Shown here one piece after another: positions 3,713-62,870 of a stretch of 64,000 nt of DNA. A model generated the notes under the pieces. The model did no database searches, had not been told where the DNA came from, and saw nothing but the letters and a program-made list of their open reading frames with translations. Numbering within the stretch: position 1 is the first letter of the stretch; each line of letters starts with the position of its first letter. The stretch spans positions 319,760 through 383,759 of the forward strand of contig JADKIX010000011.1 in NCBI GenBank assembly GCA_016722635.1, written 5' to 3'. Source of the DNA: Rhodospirillaceae bacterium (GTDB lineage Bacteria; Pseudomonadota; Alphaproteobacteria; JAEUKQ01). The position numbers were made by a program, and so were the translations under genes.

Positions 3713-4549
3713 GTGTGTGAGAAAAGAATTTCCACCATTTCAGAAAGTCTCTTGGCCTTGCGAATTGCTACATGGAATGTCAACTCTGTTCGTTTGCGCC
3801 TGCCATTGTTGGCTGCTTATATCCAGCAATCACAACCTGATGTCATCTGCCTTCAAGAAACCAAAGTGGTTGATCAGGCTTTTCCCCAAGAATTTTTCCG
3901 CCAGTACGGTTATCCCCACCAACTGGTTTCCGGTATGAAAAGCTATAATGGCATGGCCGTCTTATCAAAAATTCCCTTCCATCCTTATCTGAAAAGATCG
4001 TGGTGCGATTTAGAAGATTGCCGGCATATTTCGGTAAAGCTTGAAAATAATAGGATTATTCATAATTTTTATGTCCCCGCAGGCGGCGATATTCCCGATT
4101 CGGCGGTCAATAAAAAATTTGCTCATAAATTGCAGTTTGTCCAGGAAATGGCTAGTTTTTTAAAAACCACCCACCTGCCCAGTGACCCAGTGATTATTTT
4201 GGGAGATTTTAATATTGCCCCCTTGCCCCAAGATGTATGGTCCCATCAACAGCTGCTGGGGGTCGTCAGCCATACTCCGATAGAGACAAATCATTTGGAG
4301 AAAGTCCGGGAGTCCCTTGCTTGGGTTGATGCCGTTCGCCAGTTTTTTCCCGCTGACCAGAAATTATATAGTTGGTGGAGTTACCGGGCGGCTGATTGGC
4401 AAAAAAGCAACCGCGGGCGCCGGTTGGATCATATTTGGGTTACACCGTCTTTAAAGCCTTATCTCCACCATGCTGAAATTATCACCCATGCCCGGGGGTG
4501 GCCCACTCCTTCTGATCATGTGCCCGTCCATATTGATTTGGGGAATTAG
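3713..4549 (+). CDS. xth: exodeoxyribonuclease III
   Basis: IATWNVNS...LQETK motif of the ExoIII/APE family. Confidence 0.85.
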   Translation: MCEKRISTISESLLALRIATWNVNSVRLRLPLLAAYIQQSQPDVICLQETKVVDQAFPQEFFRQYGYPHQLVSGMKSYNGMAVLSKIPFHPYLKRSWCDLEDCRHISVKLENNRIIHNFYVPAGGDIPDSAVNKKFAHKLQFVQEMASFLKTTHLPSDPVIILGDFNIAPLPQDVWSHQQLLGVVSHTPIETNHLEKVRESLAWVDAVRQFFPADQKLYSWWSYRAADWQKSNRGRRLDHIWVTPSLKPYLHHAEIITHARGWPTPSDHVPVHIDLGN

Positions 4550-4559
4550 GACTTGTCAT

Positions 4560-5078
4560 TTATGACGCATCATAGATAAGTTTGTATTTCCGAGACATTC
4601 TATCCATAGTCAAACGCAGGGGGAACCCCCCTTGCAGTTTTTGCCGCAGCCTGTAGATGTGGCTTTCCACCGTTCGGGTTTCAATATTATTGGCATAACC
4701 CCAAATTTCTTTTAGTAAATCCTTGCGGTTCAACCCTTCCGGCCGATGATGCAATGCTTTTAAAATGGCTATTTCTTTTTCCGTTAAATAGACTTTTTTA
4801 TTGTTTTTTTTACAAAATATATATTGCTGCAAAGGATCAAAAAGATAGAGATCTGTTTCAATTGGTTTCCGTTCATTATTTTGCAACAGCAACTGTAAAT
4901 ACTCAACCAACTGCTGCAGACGGAATGGTTTTTGCAGCCATTTGATCCCGCCTTGACGATATTCAGCCTCCCTATCGGTGGCCGCACTCAGGATAAGAAG
5001 TGGTTGATCTGGACTGGCATGTCTAAAATTTGCCAAAAAATCGTCCATAACCCCTTGATCAAAGCCATCAAGATCCAA
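4560..5078 (-). CDS. OmpR-family response regulator, disrupted; the intact gene would span 4560..5214, with a +1 frameshift in the T5 run at 5171-5175
   Basis: C-terminal winged-helix trans_reg_C domain plus the C-terminal two thirds of a receiver (LDLDGF...LSAAT...QKPF); upstream in-frame and -1-frame segments encode the missing beta1-alpha1-beta2 (MVVSHDVFLISIIK / TDLGNKLGIAVDYTQELSDIY). Confidence 0.7.
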   Translation of the reverse strand: MDLDGFDQGVMDDFLANFRHASPDQPLLILSAATDREAEYRQGGIKWLQKPFRLQQLVEYLQLLLQNNERKPIETDLYLFDPLQQYIFCKKNNKKVYLTEKEIAILKALHHRPEGLNRKDLLKEIWGYANNIETRTVESHIYRLRQKLQGGFPLRLTMDRMSRKYKLIYDAS

Positions 5079-5376
5079 AACAATGACAGGCTTATGAGGA
5101 CGTGGTGGGTATATATCAGATAGCTCTTGGGTGTAATCAACAGCAATTCCTAATTTATTACCTAAATCAGTTTTTAATAATTGAGATCAAAAAAACGTCA
5201 TGGCTTACCACCATGATTTGAGCCGGGATAGCTTTGTTATTTTTTAAATGGCCCAAGTTTTCTTCCTTTTGCTCCCTGCAGCTAATTTTTCTTAACCATT
5301 CTCATCGTAATATGTCATATATTATAAAATTGATTATGAAACAGTGCCAACATTTTATTTTAAACGATAAGAACCC

Positions 5377-6495
5377 ATGACTGCGAAAGAACCACAGCCC
5401 TACATCTCAGCCTCTGCCCTAACCTACCGTTGCATCAGCGAAATAAAGCGCGGCAATCCTGTTATTTTGCAGCATCCAGCGGCCGCTTGCTTTTTTATAG
5501 CTTTAGACAGCTTGTCGGCTGCCGGATGGCGCCAATTATCCGCCCAATTTTCCGCAGATTGGCGTTTAGTCATTAGCCAGAACCGGTTATCCAGCCTGGA
5601 ACAACAGCCGCTTCCTCCTCCTGCGTCTAACCAGGCAGTCGTCCGATCCTTACCAACCTGTTCTTATCAACAGCTCCGTGAATTATTATCGCTGGATGCT
5701 TTACCAACAACAGCTTACATTTCATCTAACACTCTTACTGTTGACATAGCCGAGAAAACCGCCCTTGCTTTGTTAAGACAAGCCGGTTTAATGCCCTTGG
5801 GAATCAGCCAATTTTTGCTGGCCGAATCGATTCCTTCTTATACAGGAAAGCATCATATTCTCTCTTTCAGTCTGGATCAATTGCAACCCATAGGCTCACC
5901 CAACAAAGAAGTGGATTTTGTAGTGGAAACCCTACTGCCCCTGACTGCTGCCGAAGAAAGCCGCATTATTTTATTTCGGGAAAAGGGCGCTGAAACAGAA
6001 CATATGGCTGTCATTATCGGTAACCCCGATTTCACCAAACCCGCGCTTACCCGGATTCATTCATCCTGTTTAACGGGTGATGTGCTTGGCAGTTTACGCT
6101 GTGATTGCGGGTCACAACTGCAACAATCAATTGAATATATGGCAAAACACGGGGGCGGGGTTTTAATTTATTTATTACAAGAAGGCCGCAATATCGGTTT
6201 GGCCAACAAACTACGCTCCTATCATTTGCAAAACCAAGGTTTGGATACGTTGGCAGCCAATTGGCATTTAGGGTTTTCGGCGGATGAACGCTCTTTTGAG
6301 CTGGCCACCATTTTGCTAAAACATTTGGGGATTTCGTCTATCCAACTGCTATCTAACAACCCCTTGAAATCACAGGCCCTGCAAGCAGGCGGGATAAAAA
6401 TTGACCGGATGGTGCCGATGCTGGGACGCCGCAATGCTTTTAATCAGGATTATTTAAAAACAAAAAAACAAAAAATGGGACATCATTTGTCATAG
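5377..6495 (+). CDS. ribA: GTP cyclohydrolase II (RibA) with a degenerate DHBP-synthase (RibB)-like N-terminal domain
   Basis: RIHSSCLTGD...RCDCGSQL zinc and GTP-binding motifs; N-domain keeps the RibB-like ALALLRQAGLMPLGISQFLL segment but lacks the NEGDL and HTE catalytic motifs. Confidence 0.75.
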   Translation: MTAKEPQPYISASALTYRCISEIKRGNPVILQHPAAACFFIALDSLSAAGWRQLSAQFSADWRLVISQNRLSSLEQQPLPPPASNQAVVRSLPTCSYQQLRELLSLDALPTTAYISSNTLTVDIAEKTALALLRQAGLMPLGISQFLLAESIPSYTGKHHILSFSLDQLQPIGSPNKEVDFVVETLLPLTAAEESRIILFREKGAETEHMAVIIGNPDFTKPALTRIHSSCLTGDVLGSLRCDCGSQLQQSIEYMAKHGGGVLIYLLQEGRNIGLANKLRSYHLQNQGLDTLAANWHLGFSADERSFELATILLKHLGISSIQLLSNNPLKSQALQAGGIKIDRMVPMLGRRNAFNQDYLKTKKQKMGHHLS

Positions 6496-9132: not shown

Positions 9133-9718
9133 ATGTTGACCACCCCTTCTGTTCCGAAAAAGCTTTGCTTAAACACCTCTTTTTCATACCGTGTCTGCAC
9201 GAAACTTTTGCTGATTTCCTTCGCCGGTTTTATCCTGGCCAATTGTTCTGCTGGGGATCCCAATGATCCTGGTATCCAAGGGGCGACGGGGGCTGAGCAG
9301 CGGCGCATCCGCAACGGCGGCAATCAAACGGTTTGGGGCGATGGCGGCTTGAACTTATTTGGCAAAAACAATAAGGGGCCGGTCGTGGTTGAAGGGGTTG
9401 GGGTCAACAGCTTTCCTGTGGCGCGCCTCCCTGGATGCTATTTCCTTTATGCCGCTGGTTTCTGCTGATCCTTTTGGCGGTGTCATCATTACCGATTGGT
9501 ATAGCAGTCCGGAACTCCCAAATGAGCGGTTTAAGGTGAATGTACGGATTTTAACCCGTGATCTGCGGGCAGATGGGATTAGCATTTCCTTATTCCGCCA
9601 AACCCGGACAAATGCCAATGCCGCATGGGCAGATGCCATTACCAGCAAAAAGGCTATCCGCGATTTAGAAGATGCGGTTTTGGCCCGCGCCCGCGAATTA
9701 CGAATCGGCGCCCGTTAA
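9133..9718 (+). pseudogene. alphaproteobacterial lipoprotein (DUF3576-like), split by a +1 frameshift at the TTT run 9412-9414
   Basis: ORF 9133-9468 carries a signal peptide/lipobox and ORF 9359-9718 carries the conserved domain (AFLWRASLD...GGVIITDWY); removing one T gives a continuous ...GVNSFLWRASLD... Confidence 0.6.
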
Positions 9719-9903
9719 TTCAAGTCGCCTGAAAAAAGATCAGGGTTTTGATCAATCCCCTCCTTATATTTAAGGCACGGCTTGGATATAATGCTAGGGG
9801 CGAGGATATAGGGAACCTGGTATGAAAGGGTTAGGTGAATTGGCCTTTTGTACCAGAGGGATTCATAGCGATAGAATGGTTTTATTTGAGAGCGATGGGG
9901 CAA

Positions 9904-54001: not shown

Positions 54002-55379
54002 TAGCATATTGGGACAAAACCAACATTTAGGTTCACCTAAAAAATCTTGGTGGTTGAGAGCGGTCGGTCTGTATACAGACCGCCGCAGTTTTGCCTTGTT
54101 ATTGCTGGGGATATCTGCAGGCATGCCGTATTTCCTGTTGCATGGATCCTTAACCGCTTGGTTGCGTGAGGGTGGCGTGGATCGAGCAATGATAGGCTAT
54201 ATCAGTTGGGTTGGAGTTTTCTACGGGGTGAAAGTTTTATGGGCCCCCTTGGTAGATCAAATAAAAATCCCCCTTCTTACCCGGTTCTTGGGAAAGCGGC
54301 GCGGCTGGATTTTGCTGTCCCAGATAGGGATTGTCAGTGGATTATTATTGATGGTTTGGGGAGCACCTGTTTTTCCTGACCCTATACTTGATCAGCCTAA
54401 AGGCCTTGGAAATTTAACATATCTTGGGAATATGGGGATGTTTATCCTGGCGATTTTGTGGGTGGCCTTTTGGTCGGCAACCCAGGATATTGCCATTGAT
54501 GCCTACCGGATCGAGGTGGCTGGGGAAGAGTTCCAAGGAGCTATGGTTTCCAATTACATTTTGGGCTATCGCATCGCCGGATCTTTGGTGGTAGGGGTGG
54601 GGGCTTTTTATTTGGCGGATTTATTGTCGTGGCCAGATGCCTATTTATTGATGGCTGCTTGTTTCCTGCCACTTATCCTGGTGGTTTTGCTGTCTCATGA
54701 ACCTCAAGCTTACTCAACATCTCCTGCAAGGGGGTTTCTTGCACACATCCAACAAGCTGTTTTAAGGCCCTTTATTGAGTTTTTTCAACGCCAATCTTGG
54801 AGTAGCGCTCTTGTTATTTTGGGGTTTATCGCTCTTTGCAAAGTCAGTGATATTGTCATGGGGCCAATGGTCAACCCTCTTTACAAAGATTTGGGGTTTA
54901 CGAATATCGAAATTGCCAATATTACCAAGGTTTATGGATTTGCGATCACTATATTAGGGGGGTTCATAGCAGGAATTTTAGTTGCCCGCTATTCTGCTAA
55001 GAGGTTGTTGTTGCCTGCTATCATTTTACTAGCTGTGCCTAACCTGATGTTTATGGTGCTGGCAGACCATCCAAAAGATATCCTATTATTGGCTTCAGCC
55101 ATCAGTGCCGATAATTTTGGCAATGGCTTGGCGGCTACAATTTTAGTTGCTTATTTCTCGGGCTTGGCCAATAAGGCCTATACGGCTACGCAATATGCTT
55201 TATTCAGTTCTTTAATGAACTTACCAGGCACCATCTTGGGCGGATTTTCAGGCTGGATAACCGAGCAGGTTGGCTATAGCAATTTCTTTTTGATCAGTGC
55301 GTGCTTGGCATTGCCAGCTCTTTCCTTGGCCTTTATCCTGCAATGGCGCCCAGGGGTTAAATCGCAGGGGAAGACCTAA
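53964..55379 (+). CDS. ampG: muropeptide MFS permease AmpG; start uncertain, the called ATG overlaps typA by 38 nt
   Basis: MFS 12-14 TM topology; AmpG-like N-terminal LLLLGISAG... Confidence 0.75.
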   Translation: MSARDSTNKIRINSILGQNQHLGSPKKSWWLRAVGLYTDRRSFALLLLGISAGMPYFLLHGSLTAWLREGGVDRAMIGYISWVGVFYGVKVLWAPLVDQIKIPLLTRFLGKRRGWILLSQIGIVSGLLLMVWGAPVFPDPILDQPKGLGNLTYLGNMGMFILAILWVAFWSATQDIAIDAYRIEVAGEEFQGAMVSNYILGYRIAGSLVVGVGAFYLADLLSWPDAYLLMAACFLPLILVVLLSHEPQAYSTSPARGFLAHIQQAVLRPFIEFFQRQSWSSALVILGFIALCKVSDIVMGPMVNPLYKDLGFTNIEIANITKVYGFAITILGGFIAGILVARYSAKRLLLPAIILLAVPNLMFMVLADHPKDILLLASAISADNFGNGLAATILVAYFSGLANKAYTATQYALFSSLMNLPGTILGGFSGWITEQVGYSNFFLISACLALPALSLAFILQWRPGVKSQGKT

Positions 55380-56064
55380 GTTTATCAACCATATACCCAA
55401 CGGATCGGACGGTACGGATTATATCGGGGTCGTTGGGCTTCTTAGGATTATATAGGGCCTGCCGCAAGCGCCCGATGTGGACATCAACTGTTCGAAGATC
55501 AATATAGTGACCTTGGCCCCACACTGCATCCAGCAATTGTTCCCTGGTTAACGGACGGCCTTGGTTTAGCAGCAAATGCCTTAATAGTTTAAATTCTGTT
55601 GGGCTTAATAAAATCAACTCTTGTTCCTGATAAACTTGGTGATGGTCAAGATCAACGGTTAAATTGGCATAAAGCAATTGGCTGTTTGAGGTTAACTGCA
55701 AACTACGCCGCAGCAGGCTTTTCACCCGGGCCAGCAATTCCTTGGTGCTGAACGGTTTGGTCATATAATCATCAGCGCCTGTTTCCAGCCCGCGCAGCTT
55801 GTCATCTTCCTCCGTACGGGCTGTCAAAATAAGGATGGGCAATAAATAAAATTGTGGGGAACGTCTTAAGATCCGGCAAAGTTCTATGCCAGAAATTTTA
55901 GGCACCATCCAATCGGCAATCACCAAGTCGGGTTTCTGTTCCCGGATCAATGTTAAGGCAATCTCACCATCTTTAGCCAGGATCGCCTGGTAACCTGCAC
56001 ACTCTAAGTTATATTCCAGGATAGCCATCAGGGCTGGATCATCTTCAACAATCAAAATTGTCAT
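55357..56064 (-). CDS. phoB: phosphate regulon response regulator PhoB
   Basis: receiver (ILIVEDD...D...KPF) plus OmpR wHTH; operon position after phoU. Confidence 0.9.
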   Translation of the reverse strand: MTILIVEDDPALMAILEYNLECAGYQAILAKDGEIALTLIREQKPDLVIADWMVPKISGIELCRILRRSPQFYLLPILILTARTEEDDKLRGLETGADDYMTKPFSTKELLARVKSLLRRSLQLTSNSQLLYANLTVDLDHHQVYQEQELILLSPTEFKLLRHLLLNQGRPLTREQLLDAVWGQGHYIDLRTVDVHIGRLRQALYNPKKPNDPDIIRTVRSVGYMVDKLRSSPAI

Positions 56065-56078
56065 CGAAACAGGCTGGA

Positions 56079-56837
56079 CTATTTGGGCGATTCCTTCTTA
56101 GGAAGAGCAGATGGGGTGGGAGTTAGGTAAGAATTGGTAATCGTGTGATCGCTTTTGGGACGGTCCCCTTTAATTGGGGAGCCATGCACCATAAAATAAA
56201 TGGTTTCCGCAATATTGGTGGCGTGGTCGCCGATCCGCTCAATATTCTTGGCAATAAACAATAGATGGATACACCCACCGATGGTGCGTACATCTTCCAT
56301 CATATAGGTCAGAAGCTCCCGGAAGACGCTGGTATAAAGGGCGTCCACTTCTTCATCCTGCCGCCAGGCTTGCAGGGCTTGATCTATATTTTTATTGATA
56401 TAGGCATCCAACACATTTTTAACAATTTGTTGCACGGCTTTGCCCATCCGGGCAATACCTGTCATAAACTGTCCGTTCATCATGGTTTCGGGTAATGCTG
56501 GGACACGTTTGGCAACGTTGGCGGCATAATCGCCCATGCGCTCCAAATCACTGGAAATTCTTAAAGAGGAGACAACTTCTCGTAAATCTTGGGCCATCGG
56601 TTGCCTGAGTGCCAGGATTTTGACAACTAAATTACTGACCATTTGATCGCGCGAGTCAATTTTTTGGTCTTGCTCAACCACTTCTTTCGCTTGTTTCAAA
56701 TCATGGGACGCCAAGGCTTCGACCGCCTGTTGTAGTTGCGATTCGACCAAAGCACCCATTTCAACAAGGATATTGCCTAATTGTTTTAATTGGTCATCAA
56801 ATGATTTCACAATATGTTCGGGTAAATTTACCATCAT
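56079..56837 (-). CDS. phoU: phosphate signalling protein PhoU
   Basis: duplicated PhoU domain, about 250 aa; follows pstB. Confidence 0.9.
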   Translation of the reverse strand: MMVNLPEHIVKSFDDQLKQLGNILVEMGALVESQLQQAVEALASHDLKQAKEVVEQDQKIDSRDQMVSNLVVKILALRQPMAQDLREVVSSLRISSDLERMGDYAANVAKRVPALPETMMNGQFMTGIARMGKAVQQIVKNVLDAYINKNIDQALQAWRQDEEVDALYTSVFRELLTYMMEDVRTIGGCIHLLFIAKNIERIGDHATNIAETIYFMVHGSPIKGDRPKSDHTITNSYLTPTPSALPKKESPK

Positions 56838-56857
56838 CTTTTCCTTTTTTTATTTTT

Positions 56858-57622
56858 TTAGCCGAAACGTCCGGTGATATATCCTTGGGTGCGCTGATCC
56901 TGAGGGCTGGTAAAAATTTCGTCGGTTGCGCCACTTTCAATCAATTCACCCAGATGGAAAAAAGCAGTTTTTTGAGAAACGCGGGCCGCTTGCTGCATGG
57001 AATGGGTCACGATGACAATCGTGAAATTGTGGCATAACTCATCAATCAATTCCTCAACCTTAGCGGTCGCAATGGGGTCAAGTGCTGAACAGGGTTCATC
57101 CATCAAAATAACATTGGGATTGATAGCAATTGCCCGGGCAATGCAAAGCCGCTGTTGTTGGCCGCCAGACAGCGATAAAGCTGGTTCCTTCAAACGGTCT
57201 TTGACTTCTTTCCATAACCCTGCTTTTTCTAGGCTGTTCGTAACAATGGCATCCAGTTGCTGCCGGTTATTGGCTAATCCATGCAATTTAGGAGCGTAGG
57301 CAATATTTTCATAAATTGATTTGGGAAAAGGGTTCGGTTTTTGGAAAACCATCCCAACTTTGGCACGCAAGGTGACTACATCAATTTGGGGATCATAAAT
57401 GTTGTGGCCATCTAAAAGGATTTCGCCTTGGATACGGCAACTGGCGATCACATCATTCATCCGGTTTAAGCACCGCAGGAAAGTAGATTTACCGCAGCCG
57501 GATGGGCCAATTAAAGCGGTTACTTGGGACGACAGGATGTCCAAGGTCACAGACTTGAGGGCCTGTTTTTCCCCATAATAAACATTTAAGTCTTTAACAG
57601 TTATCTTCGCTTGGGTTGTCAT
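56858..57622 (-). CDS. pstB: phosphate ABC transporter ATP-binding protein PstB
   Basis: Walker [13 protein letters not shown] signature LSGGQQQR. Confidence 0.95.
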
Positions 57623-57680
57623 AGGTTTCTACTAAACGCCTTATTGTTTTTAATAAAAAGCAAAAAATTCTAGCTTGGTT

Positions 57681-58925
57681 TTACCATTTTTTTTCCACCC
57701 GTTGCCGGATGATAATGGCAACCGAGTTCATTAACACCAAAAATAATAACAACACAAAAATAGCTGCATAGGTTTTTTCAACAAAAGCAGTCTCCTGCAG
57801 ATCAGACCACATATAAATTTGTGCCGGTAAAACGGTTGCGGGATCGGTGAATTTTGCTGGGATATCCACCACAAAAGCGATCATGCCGACCATCATTAAA
57901 GGTGCCGTTTCACCTAATGCACGCGCCATCCCTAGAATCGTTCCCGTTAAAACTCCGGGTAACGCCAAAGGAAAAACATGATGCCAAACAACTTGGGCTG
58001 GGGAAGCACCGACCGCCAGGGCTGCTTGCCTCACGGAATCGGGTACCGAACGTAGCGCAGCCCGCGCTGCGATAATAATAACCGGTAGGGTCATTAAGGC
58101 AAGCACCATTCCCCCAACCATTGGGGAAGAACGGGGCAGATCAAAAAATCCCAAAAATACGACAATTCCCAATAACCCGAATATGATGGAGGGAATGGCT
58201 GCCAAATTATTAATATTAATTTCGATTAAACGGCTTAAGAAATTTTTCTTGGAAAATTCTTCCAAATATAAAGCTGCCGCCGCCCCAAAAGGCAAAGATA
58301 ATAATAAAGTAATAACCATGGTTAGGAAAGTGCCTGTAATACTGCCCAAAATACCAGCTTCTTCCGGCTCACGGCTATCGCCTTTGCTCCAAAACAATTT
58401 ATCAAGAGAGGTTTTGATCTGTTGCTGTTGTTCCAGTTGTTCCACCCATTGGCGTTGGTTATCGCTAAGTTTTGAATCTTTTTGGCCGGTTGTTTGATAT
58501 TCGTCAACCAAGCTTGACGTGCGCACGTCAATGAAAAAAGAAGATGGCTGGCCTATGGGGGGTGGAAGGTCGCGCAGTTCGTCTGCAGCATGCGGGGATA
58601 ACAGTTTCATGAGTTCCCGGCGTTCTGAAGACGTTGGGTTGATGGCAAGGTTCTTTTCCAACAGCTGGCGGATCATGACCCGGTAATCCGGTCCGGTCCC
58701 ATCATTGCTGGCTAAGGGCGCTATATCCGTTGTTGTGGCCTCAAGGCTAATATAGGTGTGAAAAAAAGCTGGCCACGCATGATACATAATATAAGTGAGC
58801 AGGAAAAATAAAAAACTGCTGGGTATTGCCAAGCTAACCAACGCCATTATCCTGAAACGGCGTTCACCTTTCAAGCGTTGCCGCAATTTTTTCGGGGTTT
58901 GGGTCAAGGACAGGGTATTATTCAT
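57681..58925 (-). CDS. pstA: phosphate ABC transporter permease PstA (long form)
   Basis: ABC TM permease with EAA-like ARALGETAPL; follows pstC. Confidence 0.88.
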   Translation of the reverse strand: MNNTLSLTQTPKKLRQRLKGERRFRIMALVSLAIPSSFLFFLLTYIMYHAWPAFFHTYISLEATTTDIAPLASNDGTGPDYRVMIRQLLEKNLAINPTSSERRELMKLLSPHAADELRDLPPPIGQPSSFFIDVRTSSLVDEYQTTGQKDSKLSDNQRQWVEQLEQQQQIKTSLDKLFWSKGDSREPEEAGILGSITGTFLTMVITLLLSLPFGAAAALYLEEFSKKNFLSRLIEININNLAAIPSIIFGLLGIVVFLGFFDLPRSSPMVGGMVLALMTLPVIIIAARAALRSVPDSVRQAALAVGASPAQVVWHHVFPLALPGVLTGTILGMARALGETAPLMMVGMIAFVVDIPAKFTDPATVLPAQIYMWSDLQETAFVEKTYAAIFVLLLFLVLMNSVAIIIRQRVEKKW

Positions 58926-60300
58926 ATTTTTGCCGGTAGCGCGATAAAATCCATAAAGATATAATGTTTAAACTCAACGTAATCACAAACAGCAGTAAAC
59001 CAAGGGCAAAAGCTGCCAAAGTTTTAGAACTGTTAAATTCTTGATCACCTGTTAAAAGGGTCGTGATCTGGACGGTGACGGTGGTGACAGATTGGAGAGG
59101 GTTAATACTTAAATTGGCAGCTAAGCCAGCGGCCATTACTACGATCATGGTTTCGCCGATCGCGCGTGATACCGCGAGCAATATTCCCCCGATAATTCCC
59201 GGCAAAGCAGCGGGGACCAAAACCCGGCAAATGGTTTCTGATTTTGTAGCGCCTAATGCGTAAGAACCATCGCGCAGTGAGCTGGGGACTGCTTTTAAAG
59301 CATCATCGCTTAGGGAGGCTACGAAGGGTATAATCATCATTCCCATCACCAATCCAGCTGCTAAGGCGCTTTCAGCGGCGACGTCCAAACCTAAGCTTTC
59401 CCCCAATTTACGGATAAGGGGGGCCAGCACGATGGCTGCAAAATACCCGTAAACGACGGTAGGGATCCCTGCCAATAATTCAAGCACTGGTTTCAGGATT
59501 GAGCGCTGCCGCGGCGATAAATATTCGGCCATATAGATAGCAGACATTAAACCCAAGGGGGCAGCGATAGTGATGGCTATCACTGTGATTAAAGCGGTGC
59601 CCAAGATAACAGGAATGACCCCGAAGCTGCCTGAACTTCCGGTTTGATCTGCTCGAATGGCGGTTTGTGGGCTCCATTCCGTACCAAACAGGAATTCACC
59701 TAAGGGCACACGATCGAAAAACCGCCAAGCTTCCATTAATAGAGACAAAACAATCCCTAGGGTAATGGCAATCGCGATGCTGGCGCAAGCTGCCAGAAAT
59801 ATTTTAACCAGGCTTTCAACAGCTGGGCGGGCCCGGAAATCTGTTCTGATATAGTGTTTTGACCACCAGCCGCCAATTATTGTGCCAATCAACAGAATCA
59901 TTATGTAGGCATAATATTCTATCTCCTGCCATTTTTGCAGCAAATGCTGGAATTTATCCCAAATATCCTGCGGCACAATGGGCGATATCTGTGAAAAAGG
60001 ATTGGTTAAGCTTGCTTGCAGAAGGGAATAAAAATCTTGGGGGGTAAGGTTGCTGTCCCTAAAAATGTTTTCAGGGATACCAGCAATTGTTTGATGATAG
60101 GTGAAATAAGGTAGGAAAATGGCACTAGCCAAGAGGCACAGAAGACCAATACCGCCTGCCCACACTGCAGAATAGAAACCATAATAGGCGGGGCGTGCAG
60201 CCAGAACCAGGCCAGTTTTTCGCTGGATTAGGGAAGCTTTTCGGCTTCCCCAATAATAAGAAGTAAGAGCGAGAAAAGCCAGCATCAAGAAAAACAGCAC
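58918..60300 (-). CDS. pstC: phosphate ABC transporter permease PstC (long form)
   Basis: permease EAA-like SRAIGETM motif; follows pstS. Confidence 0.88.
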   Translation of the reverse strand: MLFFLMLAFLALTSYYWGSRKASLIQRKTGLVLAARPAYYGFYSAVWAGGIGLLCLLASAIFLPYFTYHQTIAGIPENIFRDSNLTPQDFYSLLQASLTNPFSQISPIVPQDIWDKFQHLLQKWQEIEYYAYIMILLIGTIIGGWWSKHYIRTDFRARPAVESLVKIFLAACASIAIAITLGIVLSLLMEAWRFFDRVPLGEFLFGTEWSPQTAIRADQTGSSGSFGVIPVILGTALITVIAITIAAPLGLMSAIYMAEYLSPRQRSILKPVLELLAGIPTVVYGYFAAIVLAPLIRKLGESLGLDVAAESALAAGLVMGMMIIPFVASLSDDALKAVPSSLRDGSYALGATKSETICRVLVPAALPGIIGGILLAVSRAIGETMIVVMAAGLAANLSINPLQSVTTVTVQITTLLTGDQEFNSSKTLAAFALGLLLFVITLSLNIISLWILSRYRQKYE

Positions 60301-60336
60301 GCCATTCCCTCCATTTTAGGGCCAATATCTTAATCG

Positions 60337-61350
60337 TTAAGGCCGATAAACCTTCAACTGCCGGATATTTTGCAATTGTTGGGCATGATCCGATGCAGGT
60401 AAGGGAACTAAACCTTTATCAGCTAAATATCCATCTTGCCCGCTCGATTGGTCGCTAGCATATTCCAGCATAAATTCTTTTAATCCTGGCACAAGGTCAA
60501 AATGACCTTTTTTGAAATAAACATACAAAGGGCGGGCAATCTTGTAACGCCCTGTGGCAATGCTATCAAAATCTGGTTTTACCGCATCAATCGCCAAACC
60601 ATATAAAATATTCCCATTCTCCTCAAGGAAACTATAGCCGAAAATGCCCACAGATTTAGGGTTGGCCTGCAATTTCCGAACGATAAGGTTATCGTTCTCG
60701 CCTGCTTCAATGAAAGCGCCGTCTTCCCGCATGGTTTGGCAAATATTTTGCCGTTGGTCGGCCGCTAGAGAAGCAACTTCCTGAAATTGCATACATCCCT
60801 TATCCATTACCAATTCGACAAAAGAATCACGGGTACCGGAAGTTGGCGGGGGCCCCAAAACCTCAATTTTATCATTGGGTAATTGCGGGTTAATATCCTT
60901 CCAGGTTTTATAGGGATTAGCCACTAATTTCCCGTTGACTGGAACGGTTTTTGCCAGCGCCAGCCATAATTCCTTGGTAGTCAGGTTGAAAGGCTGATGT
61001 TGGTTGGATTGTGCAATAACAATACCATCAAACCCTATTTTCAACTCGATGATTTCGGTGACGCCATTTTTGGTGCAAAGCTCGATTTCCGAATCTTTGA
61101 TCCGTCTTGAGGCATTAACGACGTCGGGATAAGATTCACCAAAACCTGAACACCATAATTTGATTCCACCCCCTGTGCCAGTTGATTCAACAATAGGGGT
61201 ACGAAATTTTGTATTTCGGCCAAAATTTTCGGCAACATTTGTGGTAAAAGGAAAAACGGTGCTGGAGCCTACAACACGGATCTGATCCCGTGCTTCGGCG
61301 ATGGTTGCCCAGGATAATAAAGTTATCCCAAGGGCAGTTGATAATATTTT
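60337..61350 (-). CDS. pstS: phosphate ABC transporter substrate-binding protein PstS; start at MKILSTALG, ORF open to 61416
   Basis: signal peptide; PstS/PBP-like fold (VVGSSTVFPF, STGTGGG); operon context. Confidence 0.88.
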   Translation of the reverse strand, partial: KILSTALGITLLSWATIAEARDQIRVVGSSTVFPFTTNVAENFGRNTKFRTPIVESTGTGGGIKLWCSGFGESYPDVVNASRRIKDSEIELCTKNGVTEIIELKIGFDGIVIAQSNQHQPFNLTTKELWLALAKTVPVNGKLVANPYKTWKDINPQLPNDKIEVLGPPPTSGTRDSFVELVMDKGCMQFQEVASLAADQRQNICQTMREDGAFIEAGENDNLIVRKLQANPKSVGIFGYSFLEENGNILYGLAIDAVKPDFDSIATGRYKIARPLYVYFKKGHFDLVPGLKEFMLEYASDQSSGQDGYLADKGLVPLPASDHAQQLQNIRQLKVYRP

Positions 61351-61466
61351 CATGAGCTTAGTCCTAATTTTGATAGGGGTTGCAAATATCATTATCAATT
61401 CAAATGATAATATCAATCATATTGGCAAATGATTATGACAACTTCATGACAAACGGATTGATTATA

Positions 61467-62870
61467 TTAAACAGCTAATTCGTTATGGACAGGTAGCGAA
61501 ACGACAAAGCAGCTTCCTTGTTTGGGGCGGCTATATATCTTTAACCGGCCACGATGGCGCTGAATGATATGTGAAGCTATCGCTAATCCCAAACCTGTTC
61601 CTTGTGTATTAGGATTATTATCGGCGCGATAAAAACGTTCGGTAATCCTTGCAAGATCTTCTTCCGCAATCCCCATTCCTGAATCCACCACTAAGATTTC
61701 TAACTCTTTTCCCCCGGCGTCCAATTGGCGATACCTGAAAACCAACCAGATTTTATTGCCAGGCATACTGTATCTAACGGCGTTATCCAGCAAATTTTCA
61801 AACAGGATGTATAATTGTTGACTATCACCGGATAAGGTAGGTAAATCATCCGTTTTTTCTAAAAATCCCTCCCCAGGAGGAATAAAATCAAATGAGGTGG
61901 GCTCACCCCCCAATTGCAGATCAATGGAATATTTATTTAACAATGGTTGCAGATCACCTTGCACTGTTTCCAGGATAGATGCCAAGGAAACAATGTTTTC
62001 TGGATAGCTACTTTCCAGCTGTTCAATCTTGGACAGGAGGAGCAGATCTTTGACTAATTGGCCCATGCGCCGGACTTGTTGTTGAAATAAAGAAAGAAAA
62101 AGCTCTCTTTTTTTAAGATCTTCGGGGAAGTGATCTTGAAGTGTTTCTGTAAGACTAGAAATAACGGCTAAAGGCGTTTGTAGTTGATGGCTGGCGTTCG
62201 CAACAAAATCTTGATTCTTTTGGATCATTTTTTTAGCAAAAGTCTGATCACGTAAAACAATAACGGTGGCCAGAAACTCTGCTAAGGGCAAGGATAATTG
62301 TTGTAAGGTAATATTCCAATGCCTAGTTACCGGGATTGTTAAAGAAAATTCCAGGTTTAAAAATTCGCATTGCTGTTGATTGATTTGATTGATCCCATTT
62401 AACAAATCGGGATGACGGATCAGGCCCGCTAACTCAACTCCTACCAAAGATCCGGTGTATCCCAATGATTTATTAACTTCTGCATTGCTGTAAATGATTT
62501 TTTGCTGGGTATTTATGATTAATACTGCCTCTGGCCAGTTCTCAAACAAACGGGTCAAAAGATCCAGCAAAAATTTGGCTGTTGGGGAAACAAAAAAGGT
62601 ATTTGATAAAGATTCAGGATGGTGTGCAGGGGAAGGGGATAAATCTAAAATATCATTTCCCTGTCTTTCTCCTGGTCTATGTTCCCTAGCTGTGGTCTTC
62701 CGACTCAATTGAAAATAGCCAAAGGCAATGATTACGCAATGGCTTAACAGGCAAACGAAAAATCCCCAGATCTCTAACAATCCTAACCCACTCAGTAACC
62801 CTGTTAACAAAACACTGAAAACAAAACTGCGTACGATAAAGGCTAGGGGAAATGCTTTTGATGGTATCAT
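61467..62870 (-). CDS. phoR: phosphate regulon sensor histidine kinase PhoR
   Basis: 2 TM helices, PAS, HisKA H-box ASHQLQTPL, HATPase G-box GTGLGLAI; heads the pst operon. Confidence 0.88.
   Translation of the reverse strand: MIPSKAFPLAFIVRSFVFSVLLTGLLSGLGLLEIWGFFVCLLSHCVIIAFGYFQLSRKTTAREHRPGERQGNDILDLSPSPAHHPESLSNTFFVSPTAKFLLDLLTRLFENWPEAVLIINTQQKIIYSNAEVNKSLGYTGSLVGVELAGLIRHPDLLNGINQINQQQCEFLNLEFSLTIPVTRHWNITLQQLSLPLAEFLATVIVLRDQTFAKKMIQKNQDFVANASHQLQTPLAVISSLTETLQDHFPEDLKKRELFLSLFQQQVRRMGQLVKDLLLLSKIEQLESSYPENIVSLASILETVQGDLQPLLNKYSIDLQLGGEPTSFDFIPPGEGFLEKTDDLPTLSGDSQQLYILFENLLDNAVRYSMPGNKIWLVFRYRQLDAGGKELEILVVDSGMGIAEEDLARITERFYRADNNPNTQGTGLGLAIASHIIQRHRGRLKIYSRPKQGSCFVVSLPVHNELAV

Follow-up and report, generated by a model that had tools for sequence, protein, structure and literature searches.

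Does a response regulator gene that is split between two reading frames represent a decaying gene, a functional arrangement or an error in the deposited record, and what kind of receiver domain does it encode? The locus lies in a stretch of 64,000 nucleotides, referred to here in its entirety as the window, that was taken from a metagenome-assembled genome (NCBI MAG 'Rhodospirillaceae bacterium') with proteins MBL0339264-316, those of the window including MBL0339264.1, MBL0339267.1, MBL0339269.1 and MBL0339316.1. The initial annotation described an OmpR-family regulator interrupted by one extra base in a T5 homopolymer, with an atypical acidic pocket in the receiver. We re-examined the reading frames, the site and origin of the extra base, and the family and probable mode of action of the encoded protein.

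The two-frame arrangement is as described. The 172-residue ORF starts at a TTG in the middle of the receiver domain, at the sequence LDLD, its first residue being the leucine directly before the acceptor aspartate (VIVL-DLDGF). Reading 5' from this TTG (5078), the same frame has no stop before the TGA at 5189-5187; it encodes QLLKTDLGNKLGIAVDYTQELSDIY, the beta2-alpha2 part that had been placed there; from the TGA onward it translates as SQLLKTDLGNKLGIAVDYTQELSDIYPPRPHKPVIVLDLD. The beta1-alpha1 part is found in the second frame, which reads M-VVSHDVFLI from ATG 5214 and ends as LGHLKNNKAIPAQIMVVSHDVFLISIIKN at the stop at 5169-5167. The two frames overlap at 5186-5170, approximately 20 nt, so that a one-base deletion there rejoins them. 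The deposited annotation contains only MBL0339266.1, a 158-residue 'winged helix-turn-helix domain-containing protein' that starts at TTG 5036, is identical to the window sequence from that codon and is a remnant of the 231-residue regulator.

A one-base deletion does restore a full-length OmpR-type regulator, as had been proposed, but the base to be removed is not in the homopolymer at 5171-5175. In the DNA alignment, position 5184 is the only column with a base in the window and a gap in all six comparators. The window reads GATCTCAATTATT at 5181-5188, corresponding on the minus strand to GATCTCAA, versus GATCCAA or AACTCAA in the relatives; over a shorter span, the window has TTGATCTCAATT where L001 and L014 have TTGATC-CAATT and L002 and L013 have TTAA-CTCAATT (the longer rows are given in Table 1). 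This site is about 10 nt farther 5' in the gene than the T5 run and lies outside any homopolymer. The run itself is AAAAA on the coding strand and does not differ in length between the window and L001-L005, L010, L013 and L014 (in L010 it is broken by substitutions); since it is equally long in all the aligned orthologous DNAs, it was ruled out as the lesion. Deletion of the base at 5184 yields an intact product of 231 residues in which the repaired segment reads VFLIQLLKTDLG, not VFLISIIKTDLG. The length of about 218 residues suggested earlier is close to the 217 residues counted from ATG 5214; from the likelier TTG 5256 the protein has 231.

Table 1. Coordinates of the regulator gene, its signals and domains, the lesion and other features discussed in the text (window numbering).
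Feature	Position	Strand	Remark
Regulator gene in the window	4560..5256	minus	697 nt: 231 codons, stop and one extra base
Ends of the regulator gene	TTG start 5256; TAA stop 4562-4560		TTG conserved; also the start of P0001-P0003, each 231 aa
-35 element TTGGCA	5350-5345	minus	promoter scan
-10 element TATAAT	5326-5321	minus	promoter scan; 18-nt spacer to -35
Shine-Dalgarno AGGAAG	5267-5262	minus	5 nt before TTG 5256
5' fragment from the frameshift	5167..5256	minus	MGHLKNNKAIPAQIMVVSHDVFLI, then out-of-frame SIIKN and stop (three-frame translation)
Downstream ORF	4560..5078	minus	172 aa; its TTG is the earliest start in this frame
Extra base, T on the coding strand	5184 (5186 if the L002 haplotype is the reference)	minus	DNA alignment
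Lesion alignment row, window			TTTGATCTCAATT
Lesion alignment row, L001/L014			TTTGATC-CAATT
Lesion alignment row, L002/L013			TTTAA-CTCAATT
T5/A5 run	5171..5175		not the lesion
Receiver-like (beta-alpha)5 domain	4872..5220	minus	residues 13-128 of the repaired protein
S18-H19-D20 codons	5197..5205	minus	S and H at acidic metal-ligand positions DD1 and DD2
Retained active-site positions	4929..5075	minus	invariant in 15 orthologues
D61	5075-5073	minus	aligns with the acceptor Asp
S90	4988-4986	minus	aligns with the canonical T position
W106	4940-4938	minus	aligns with the aromatic switch residue
K109-P110	4931-4926	minus	aligns with the canonical K
Winged helix-turn-helix (Trans_reg_C)	4572..4865	minus	residues 131-228; PF00486
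DUF3576 gene with second frameshift	9133..9718	plus	extra C at 9411
PhoB, canonical, same genome	55357-56064	minus	277 bits on the PhoB model
phoR-pstSCAB-phoU-phoB cluster	55.4-62.9 kb

The start codon is most likely TTG 5256, giving a product of 231 residues, because the TTG, the AGGAAG before it, the open frame that follows and a near-consensus promoter are all conserved. This TTG is present in every lineage, including L010 at 70% identity, and the frame between it and ATG 5214 is open everywhere; the ATG itself is ATT in three lineages (L001, L004 and L014). The predicted promoter matches 11 of 12 positions in the promoter scan, and the alignment shows its elements and the Shine-Dalgarno sequence to be conserved in all lineages. 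The first 10 residues of the protein are predicted to be disordered in an AlphaFold2 model and have a dN/dS of about 0.75-1.4. The 120-nt region shared with a divergent ribA-like gene is almost invariant even in L010, for which the coding dS exceeds 1.3 (saturated). A search of the whole window against Rfam at gathering thresholds gave no match, hence no riboswitch or other known RNA in this conserved intergenic region, and a search there for direct repeats of the OmpR type gave only one weak A/T-rich pair of 10 nt. Within the first codons, at 5216-5198, lies a terminator-like hairpin, which was treated as a chance structure since its stem is not kept in L001 or L004.

The repaired protein was used as the query in a search of 5.8 billion proteins, which returned four close clusters, P0001, P0002, P0003 and P0004, with 94%, 92%, 86% and 70% identity, 100% query coverage and lengths of 231 or 216 residues. 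The protein is intact, with 216-231 residues, and has the same gene neighbourhood in more than 20 independent assemblies, none of which carries the insertion. Two clusters at 90% identity have 10 and 12 members, almost all of 217-231 residues, and P0003 is encoded on 12 contigs. Synteny is identical: porin, YggS, GTP cyclohydrolase II, the regulator, exonuclease III, glutamine amidotransferase, LolA and FtsK. Rather than starting at the equivalent of 5078 with a truncated receiver, the orthologues encode the whole receiver-like domain. An exhaustive profile search of 1.84 billion representatives gave only one cluster, that of the protein itself, below 1e-30; after it comes a match at 3.5e-23, followed by 8,382 generic OmpR-family matches. 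The orthologous group is therefore narrow, comprising uncultured Alphaproteobacteria from activated-sludge and wastewater metagenomes. In comparisons among orthologues, dN/dS is 0.06-0.36 in the DNA-binding part and 0.09-0.26 in the receiver part, the latter range indicating that the receiver-like domain is maintained by purifying selection.

These intact relatives permit an assessment of how the extra base arose. It is probably an artefact of a consensus drawn from mixed strains and not the mark of a dead gene; this is the best reading because the insertion falls on a single-nucleotide polymorphism (SNP), a second frameshift in the window bears the same signature, and the window, which comes from a MAG, is a mosaic of two known haplotypes. 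The MAG would have been assembled from co-occurring strains, and a consensus error at a strain SNP would have left both alleles written in tandem, the L001-type GAT and then the L002-type CTCAA. The underlying strain alleles would be GATCCAA and AACTCAA at 5184, and CAGCTTCC and CAGTTTCC at the second frameshift. Apart from the insertion, the 696-nt gene contains no base unique to the window: five intact relatives together account for every nucleotide. Along the window, L001-type and L002-type alleles alternate in blocks, as in a mosaic. The second frameshift disrupts a DUF3576 gene, of which two window frames match the N- and C-terminal halves of intact 194-residue orthologues. At 9411 the window has CAGCTTTCC, where L014 has CAG-CTTCC and L004 has CAG-TTTCC, and the local background is L004-type; on an L014 background, a slip from TT to TTT would be another way to read the event. 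A third window-unique insertion, intergenic, at 9721, falls on a C/A SNP. At all three positions (5184, 9411 and 9721) the inserted base is the alternative allele of the adjacent SNP. For single-base insertions at random sites, this tandem-allele pattern is expected in 7.4% of cases within the regulator gene and in 3.4% of those within the DUF3576 region. With three of three insertions fitting against 3-7% for each, a chance origin is unlikely (roughly 1e-4), although the signature count is small, two or three insertions only.

The case for an artefact rests on such signatures in the sequence, and the comparison contigs are metagenomic as well and may themselves be mosaics. Also counting against it, GATCTCA is a new k-mer, of a kind that short-read assemblers of the de Bruijn type do not usually create. 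The assembly is not generally error-ridden, as only two frameshifts occur in about 62 genes; at five other places where ORFs overlap on the same strand, the two ORFs are distinct intact genes, each fully covered in Pfam, and ten further large ORFs are likewise fully covered by profiles. In long-read metagenome assemblies, consensus indels leading to frameshift errors are a recognised problem (PMC9262707).

The main alternative is that the frameshift is real and very recent in this strain, the gene being a fresh null allele with intact copies in sister strains. We consider this possible but doubtful. The deposited sequence does carry the insertion, and its annotation has only the 158-residue remnant; a second gene 4 kb away is frameshifted too, and a pseudogene share of about 3% is normal for a bacterial genome. 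Furthermore, in two other assemblies (P0159 and P0169) the frame of this gene changes in another way, near its 3' end, on the basis of which the gene may be dispensable. Against a real lesion stand the mosaic haplotype of the window in a MAG, the identity of the inserted base with the other allele of the adjacent SNP at every insertion, and the purifying selection acting on the gene in relatives. The insertion is confined to this record and shared with none of the more than 20 other assemblies, although confinement alone does not show it to be false. Neither the products of 172, 162 and 158 residues nor the repaired protein gave an exact match on contigs, and a metagenome scan with a pattern accepting either allele found two JGI contigs, both intact. 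The earlier description of the gene as disrupted, if taken to mean a decaying pseudogene, is thus doubtful: the frame is interrupted relative to intact orthologues, but the further decay expected of a pseudogene, in the form of extra substitutions or relaxed constraint, is absent, and the sole unique base is an insertion written as two alleles in tandem. That the split is functional, through programmed ribosomal frameshifting or translation of the downstream ORF (172 or 158 residues) alone as an N-truncated regulator, is extremely improbable: a +1 shift within the frame overlap would restore the protein, but the overlap has no slippery motif, neither TTG 5078 nor TTG 5036 is preceded by a Shine-Dalgarno sequence, truncation would deprive the domain core of strands beta1 to beta3, and all orthologues are single-frame, so the site is not a conserved recoding site.

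With the extra base treated as a probable consensus artefact, the locus encodes a predicted orphan OmpR/PhoB-family transcription factor of 231 residues, in keeping with the family assignment made initially. The sole Pfam match of the protein is the winged helix-turn-helix, PF00486 (E = 2e-13; 50.6 bits versus a cut-off of 26.2); with the correct repair, the receiver model PF00072 still finds no match in the protein at E <= 10. The AlphaFold2 model of the orthologue P0001 (pLDDT 84) contains both a receiver fold and a winged helix-turn-helix, with strands at 13-17, 38-42, 57-61, 86-90 and 105-108 and helices between them, followed in the C-terminal part by a four-stranded sheet, three helices and a hairpin. 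In the orthologue profile, residues 12-210 align colinearly to residues 6-208 of MtrA, and DrrD and PrrA align likewise; the full-length NCBIfam models PmrA, MtrA, NblR, PhoB and QseB align from residue 13 to about 208. Assignment to a named equivalog was rejected, every NCBIfam match being far under its cut-off. The top structural matches in Foldseek are KdpE, PrrA, RpaA, VanR, CosR, PhoP, RitR, HP1043 and GlnR, with a probability of 1.0 for full-length KdpE, PrrA and PhoP. Thus, of the features of the OmpR/PhoB family, the winged helix-turn-helix and, in the model, the (beta-alpha)5 receiver fold are present; recognition by PF00072 and the complete quintet (DD, D, T/S, K) are absent, with D61, S90 and K109 in place.

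The missing members of the quintet are the acidic pair. The sequence VVSHD aligns over the canonical VVDDD, which places serine and histidine at the pair positions and makes D20 the third, non-ligand acidic residue of the motif (VVDDD/VVEDE), in agreement with the degenerate pocket, reading SHD, reported in the initial annotation. Whether SHD is conserved can be answered only in part affirmatively: both ligand positions are replaced in all orthologues, but the exact residues vary, position 18 being S or T and position 19 H, Q or R among 15 orthologues (SHD, SQD, TRD). The same 15 sequences are invariant at D20, D61, S90, A91, W106 and K109-P110. Downstream of the acceptor, position D+4 is Phe instead of Pro and position D+8 is Val instead of Gly. 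The pockets of several of the nearest relatives are degenerate too (P0010, GTD; P0012, SPD; P0016, SSD).

On the basis of the alignments and the model, the N-terminal domain is a predicted pseudo-receiver in which both Mg2+-coordinating acidic residues have been replaced and the fold has been kept, and the suspicion that the receiver is atypical is borne out by the loss of both metal ligands across the orthologues. A pseudo-receiver is defined as a receiver fold without at least one of the phosphotransfer residues (PMC12632262); the domain has this character, which is conserved at orthologue identities of 70-94%. It does not belong to the aspartate-less receiver (ALR) class, as D61 is invariant and aligned with the acceptor Asp. 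In a survey of pseudo-receivers (PsR) by Bourret, Kennedy, Tamayo and Foster in 2025, DD2 is non-acidic in about 80% and DD1 sometimes; D, T and K are each still present in about 65%, while canonical receivers are 100% acidic at both DD positions (PMC12632262). The pocket of the regulator matches the commonest PsR pattern of that survey, and it shares with PsR regulators the (beta-alpha)5 fold, the missing catalytic residues, the non-acidic DD2 and the loss of D+4 Pro and D+8 Gly. The difference is that the PsR census starts from domains recognised by PF00072 (PMC12632262), whereas this domain lies below PF00072 detection and would be uncounted.

The regulator is an orphan. Neither in the window nor in L004, L010, L012 or L014 does the gene have a histidine kinase in its vicinity. 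Motif scans and Pfam over the 64 kb give a single kinase, PhoR, which lies at a distance of 56 kb and forms a pair with PhoB, so the cognate orphan kinase for which a search had been suggested was not found. This PhoB is a member of the same two-domain family but has the full pocket (IVEDD, VIAD, LTAR, TKPF) and sits within a phoR-pstSCAB-phoU-phoB cluster.

Several known regulators combine an OmpR/PhoB architecture with an incomplete pocket. GlnR of actinomycetes and NblR of cyanobacteria are atypical OmpR/PhoB regulators that keep the Asp and act without phosphorylation. Like the protein described here, they are orphans of this architecture in which the Asp is kept but the acidic pocket is incomplete; a GlnR structure (8hih) is among the Foldseek matches, and the NblR model is the third-best NCBIfam match, but with 46 bits versus a cut-off of 300. 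The regulator nevertheless belongs to neither of these families. Its phylum is a different one, and the GlnR_1st HMM (PF21695) has no match at E <= 10 to the repaired protein or P0004, and only a weak one to the distant P0016. HP1043/HsrA of Helicobacter pylori, ChxR of Chlamydia, CosR of Campylobacter and RitR of Streptococcus are likewise orphan OmpR-family regulators with a degenerate receiver. In several of them the acceptor Asp itself is missing; the present regulator has retained Asp61 and lost the metal ligands instead. The Foldseek neighbours in this group are 2hqr, 8uvk/8uvx and 5u8k, with a sequence identity of only 18-20%. Regulators of the HP1043, ChxR, CosR and RitR type activate without phosphorylation (PMC3960148, PMC8345958).

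By analogy, the regulator most likely acts without Asp phosphorylation, as a dimeric DNA-binding protein, with expression level or a non-phosphoryl input of some kind determining how active it would be. A candidate target is its own highly conserved promoter region, shared with the divergent ribA-like gene, to which it may bind. Within this 120-bp region (5257-5376), the palindrome TAATAT-N5-ATATTA at 5324-5308 and the promoter are candidate operators. The retention of D61, S90, W106 and K109-P110 would also be expected of a receiver that can still be phosphorylated, and as the orthologues span only 70-94% identity, conservation of the active site is weak evidence either way. The principal alternative on mechanism is that the domain remains a functional phospho-receiver, with D61 phosphorylated by an unlinked histidine kinase or a small phosphodonor and phosphorylation-driven dimerisation activating DNA binding. 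The invariance of D61, S90, A91 (the small residue at T+1), W106 (the aromatic residue at K-3) and K109-P110 would fit such a role, and D20 and D63, which lie near the pocket, might replace the ligands. We regard this as unlikely, given that both metal-ligand positions, invariably acidic in canonical receivers, are non-acidic here, that position 19 varies among H, Q and R, that Pro at D+4 and Gly at D+8 have been lost, that PF00072 fails to recognise the domain, and that a partner kinase is absent from the locus in all relatives examined. There is also a slight chance that the domain is a switchable receiver with non-canonical chemistry, either metal-independent or alternative-ligand phosphorylation or a remodelled pocket that senses pH or a ligand. 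The basis for this suggestion is the single cluster at 50% identity in 1.8 billion representatives, invisible to PF00072, in which D61, S90, W106 and K109 are under purifying selection. Such a switch, if true, would differ from a constitutively active pseudo-receiver.

The significance of the locus is mainly one of quality control. MBL0339266.1, with 158 residues, under-reports a regulator of 231, and a one-base consensus error is the likely cause; two SNP alleles in tandem constitute a signature that could serve as a cheap, read-free flag for consensus errors in MAGs. For biology, the protein adds one more orphan pseudo-receiver regulator to the known pseudo-receiver class. As its receiver-like domain has diverged past PF00072 detection, censuses of pseudo-receivers that are based on PF00072 would undercount such proteins; the current understanding of two-component signalling is unchallenged by this regulator.

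The 120-nt region that separates the regulator from the divergent 'GTP cyclohydrolase II' gene contains the regulator's promoter and is near-invariant, even in the lineage at 70% identity (L010), with no match in Rfam. The region also contains an A/T-rich direct repeat and a palindrome, the latter overlapping the -10 element and the likely transcription start. The adjoining 372-aa cyclohydrolase carries an N-terminal extension of ~180 aa ahead of the RibA domain and scores 268 bits against the long PRK08815 form, under the model cut-off of 464.

At the opposite end of the gene, the regulator orthologues P0159 (HPI63112.1) and P0169 (JGI) are 227 aa long and terminate in MENVSE-IQTDL in place of MDRTSRKYKLIYDAS. 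This altered ending agrees with what the same DNA encodes in another frame, suggesting a separate frame change near the regulator 3' end in two further assemblies; the last β-hairpin strand of the winged helix would thereby be lost. The 3' end of the coding region also includes a GC-rich hairpin with a T run after it, apparently serving the convergent exonuclease III gene as its intrinsic terminator; the hairpin overlaps the regulator codons for LQGGFPL, a stretch that reads LKKDFPL in L010.

Coordinates of the features discussed (window positions)
Feature	Position	Strand	Remark
Exonuclease III gene	3713-4549		convergent with regulator
GC-rich hairpin (GCAGGGGGAACCCCCCTTGC), then T run	4616-4635	+	within 3' end of regulator coding region
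Intergenic region	5257-5376		regulator to GTP cyclohydrolase II
Direct repeat, 10 nt	5264-5255 and 5293-5284		A/T-rich
Palindrome TAATAT-N5-ATATTA	5324-5308		overlaps -10 and likely transcription start
'GTP cyclohydrolase II'	5377-6495	+	adjoins regulator
DUF3576-family gene	9133-9718	+	split
Phosphate-sensing cluster	55357-62870	-	complete
PhoB	55357-56064	-	phosphate-sensing cluster
PhoR	61467-62870	-	phosphate-sensing cluster
ORF, 304 aa	63075-63989	+	

Elsewhere, the window encodes a complete canonical phosphate-sensing cluster (PhoR, PstS, PstC, PstA, PstB, PhoU, PhoB), in which the acidic pocket of PhoB is intact, as well as a 304-aa ORF with no match in Pfam or NCBIfam.

The DUF3576-family gene, unbroken in its orthologues (194 aa), is split by one extra base at 9411, located at a C/T strain SNP of which both alleles appear in tandem. 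Since the resulting 111-aa 5' fragment is absent from the protein collection, it may have been annotated as a pseudogene or with another start. The third single-base insertion unique to the window, at 9721, is intergenic, 3 nt past the DUF3576 stop, and falls again on a column that differs between two related contigs (C in L014, A in L004); because of additional substitutions close by, this case is less clean than the others.

Between 3400 and 5475, alleles of the types found in two other related contigs, L001 and L002, form a block mosaic that switches every 50–500 bp, and a protein of another assembly (P0162) combines these two types in a different mosaic. These mosaics reflect either frequent recombination among co-occurring strains or chimeric consensus assemblies.
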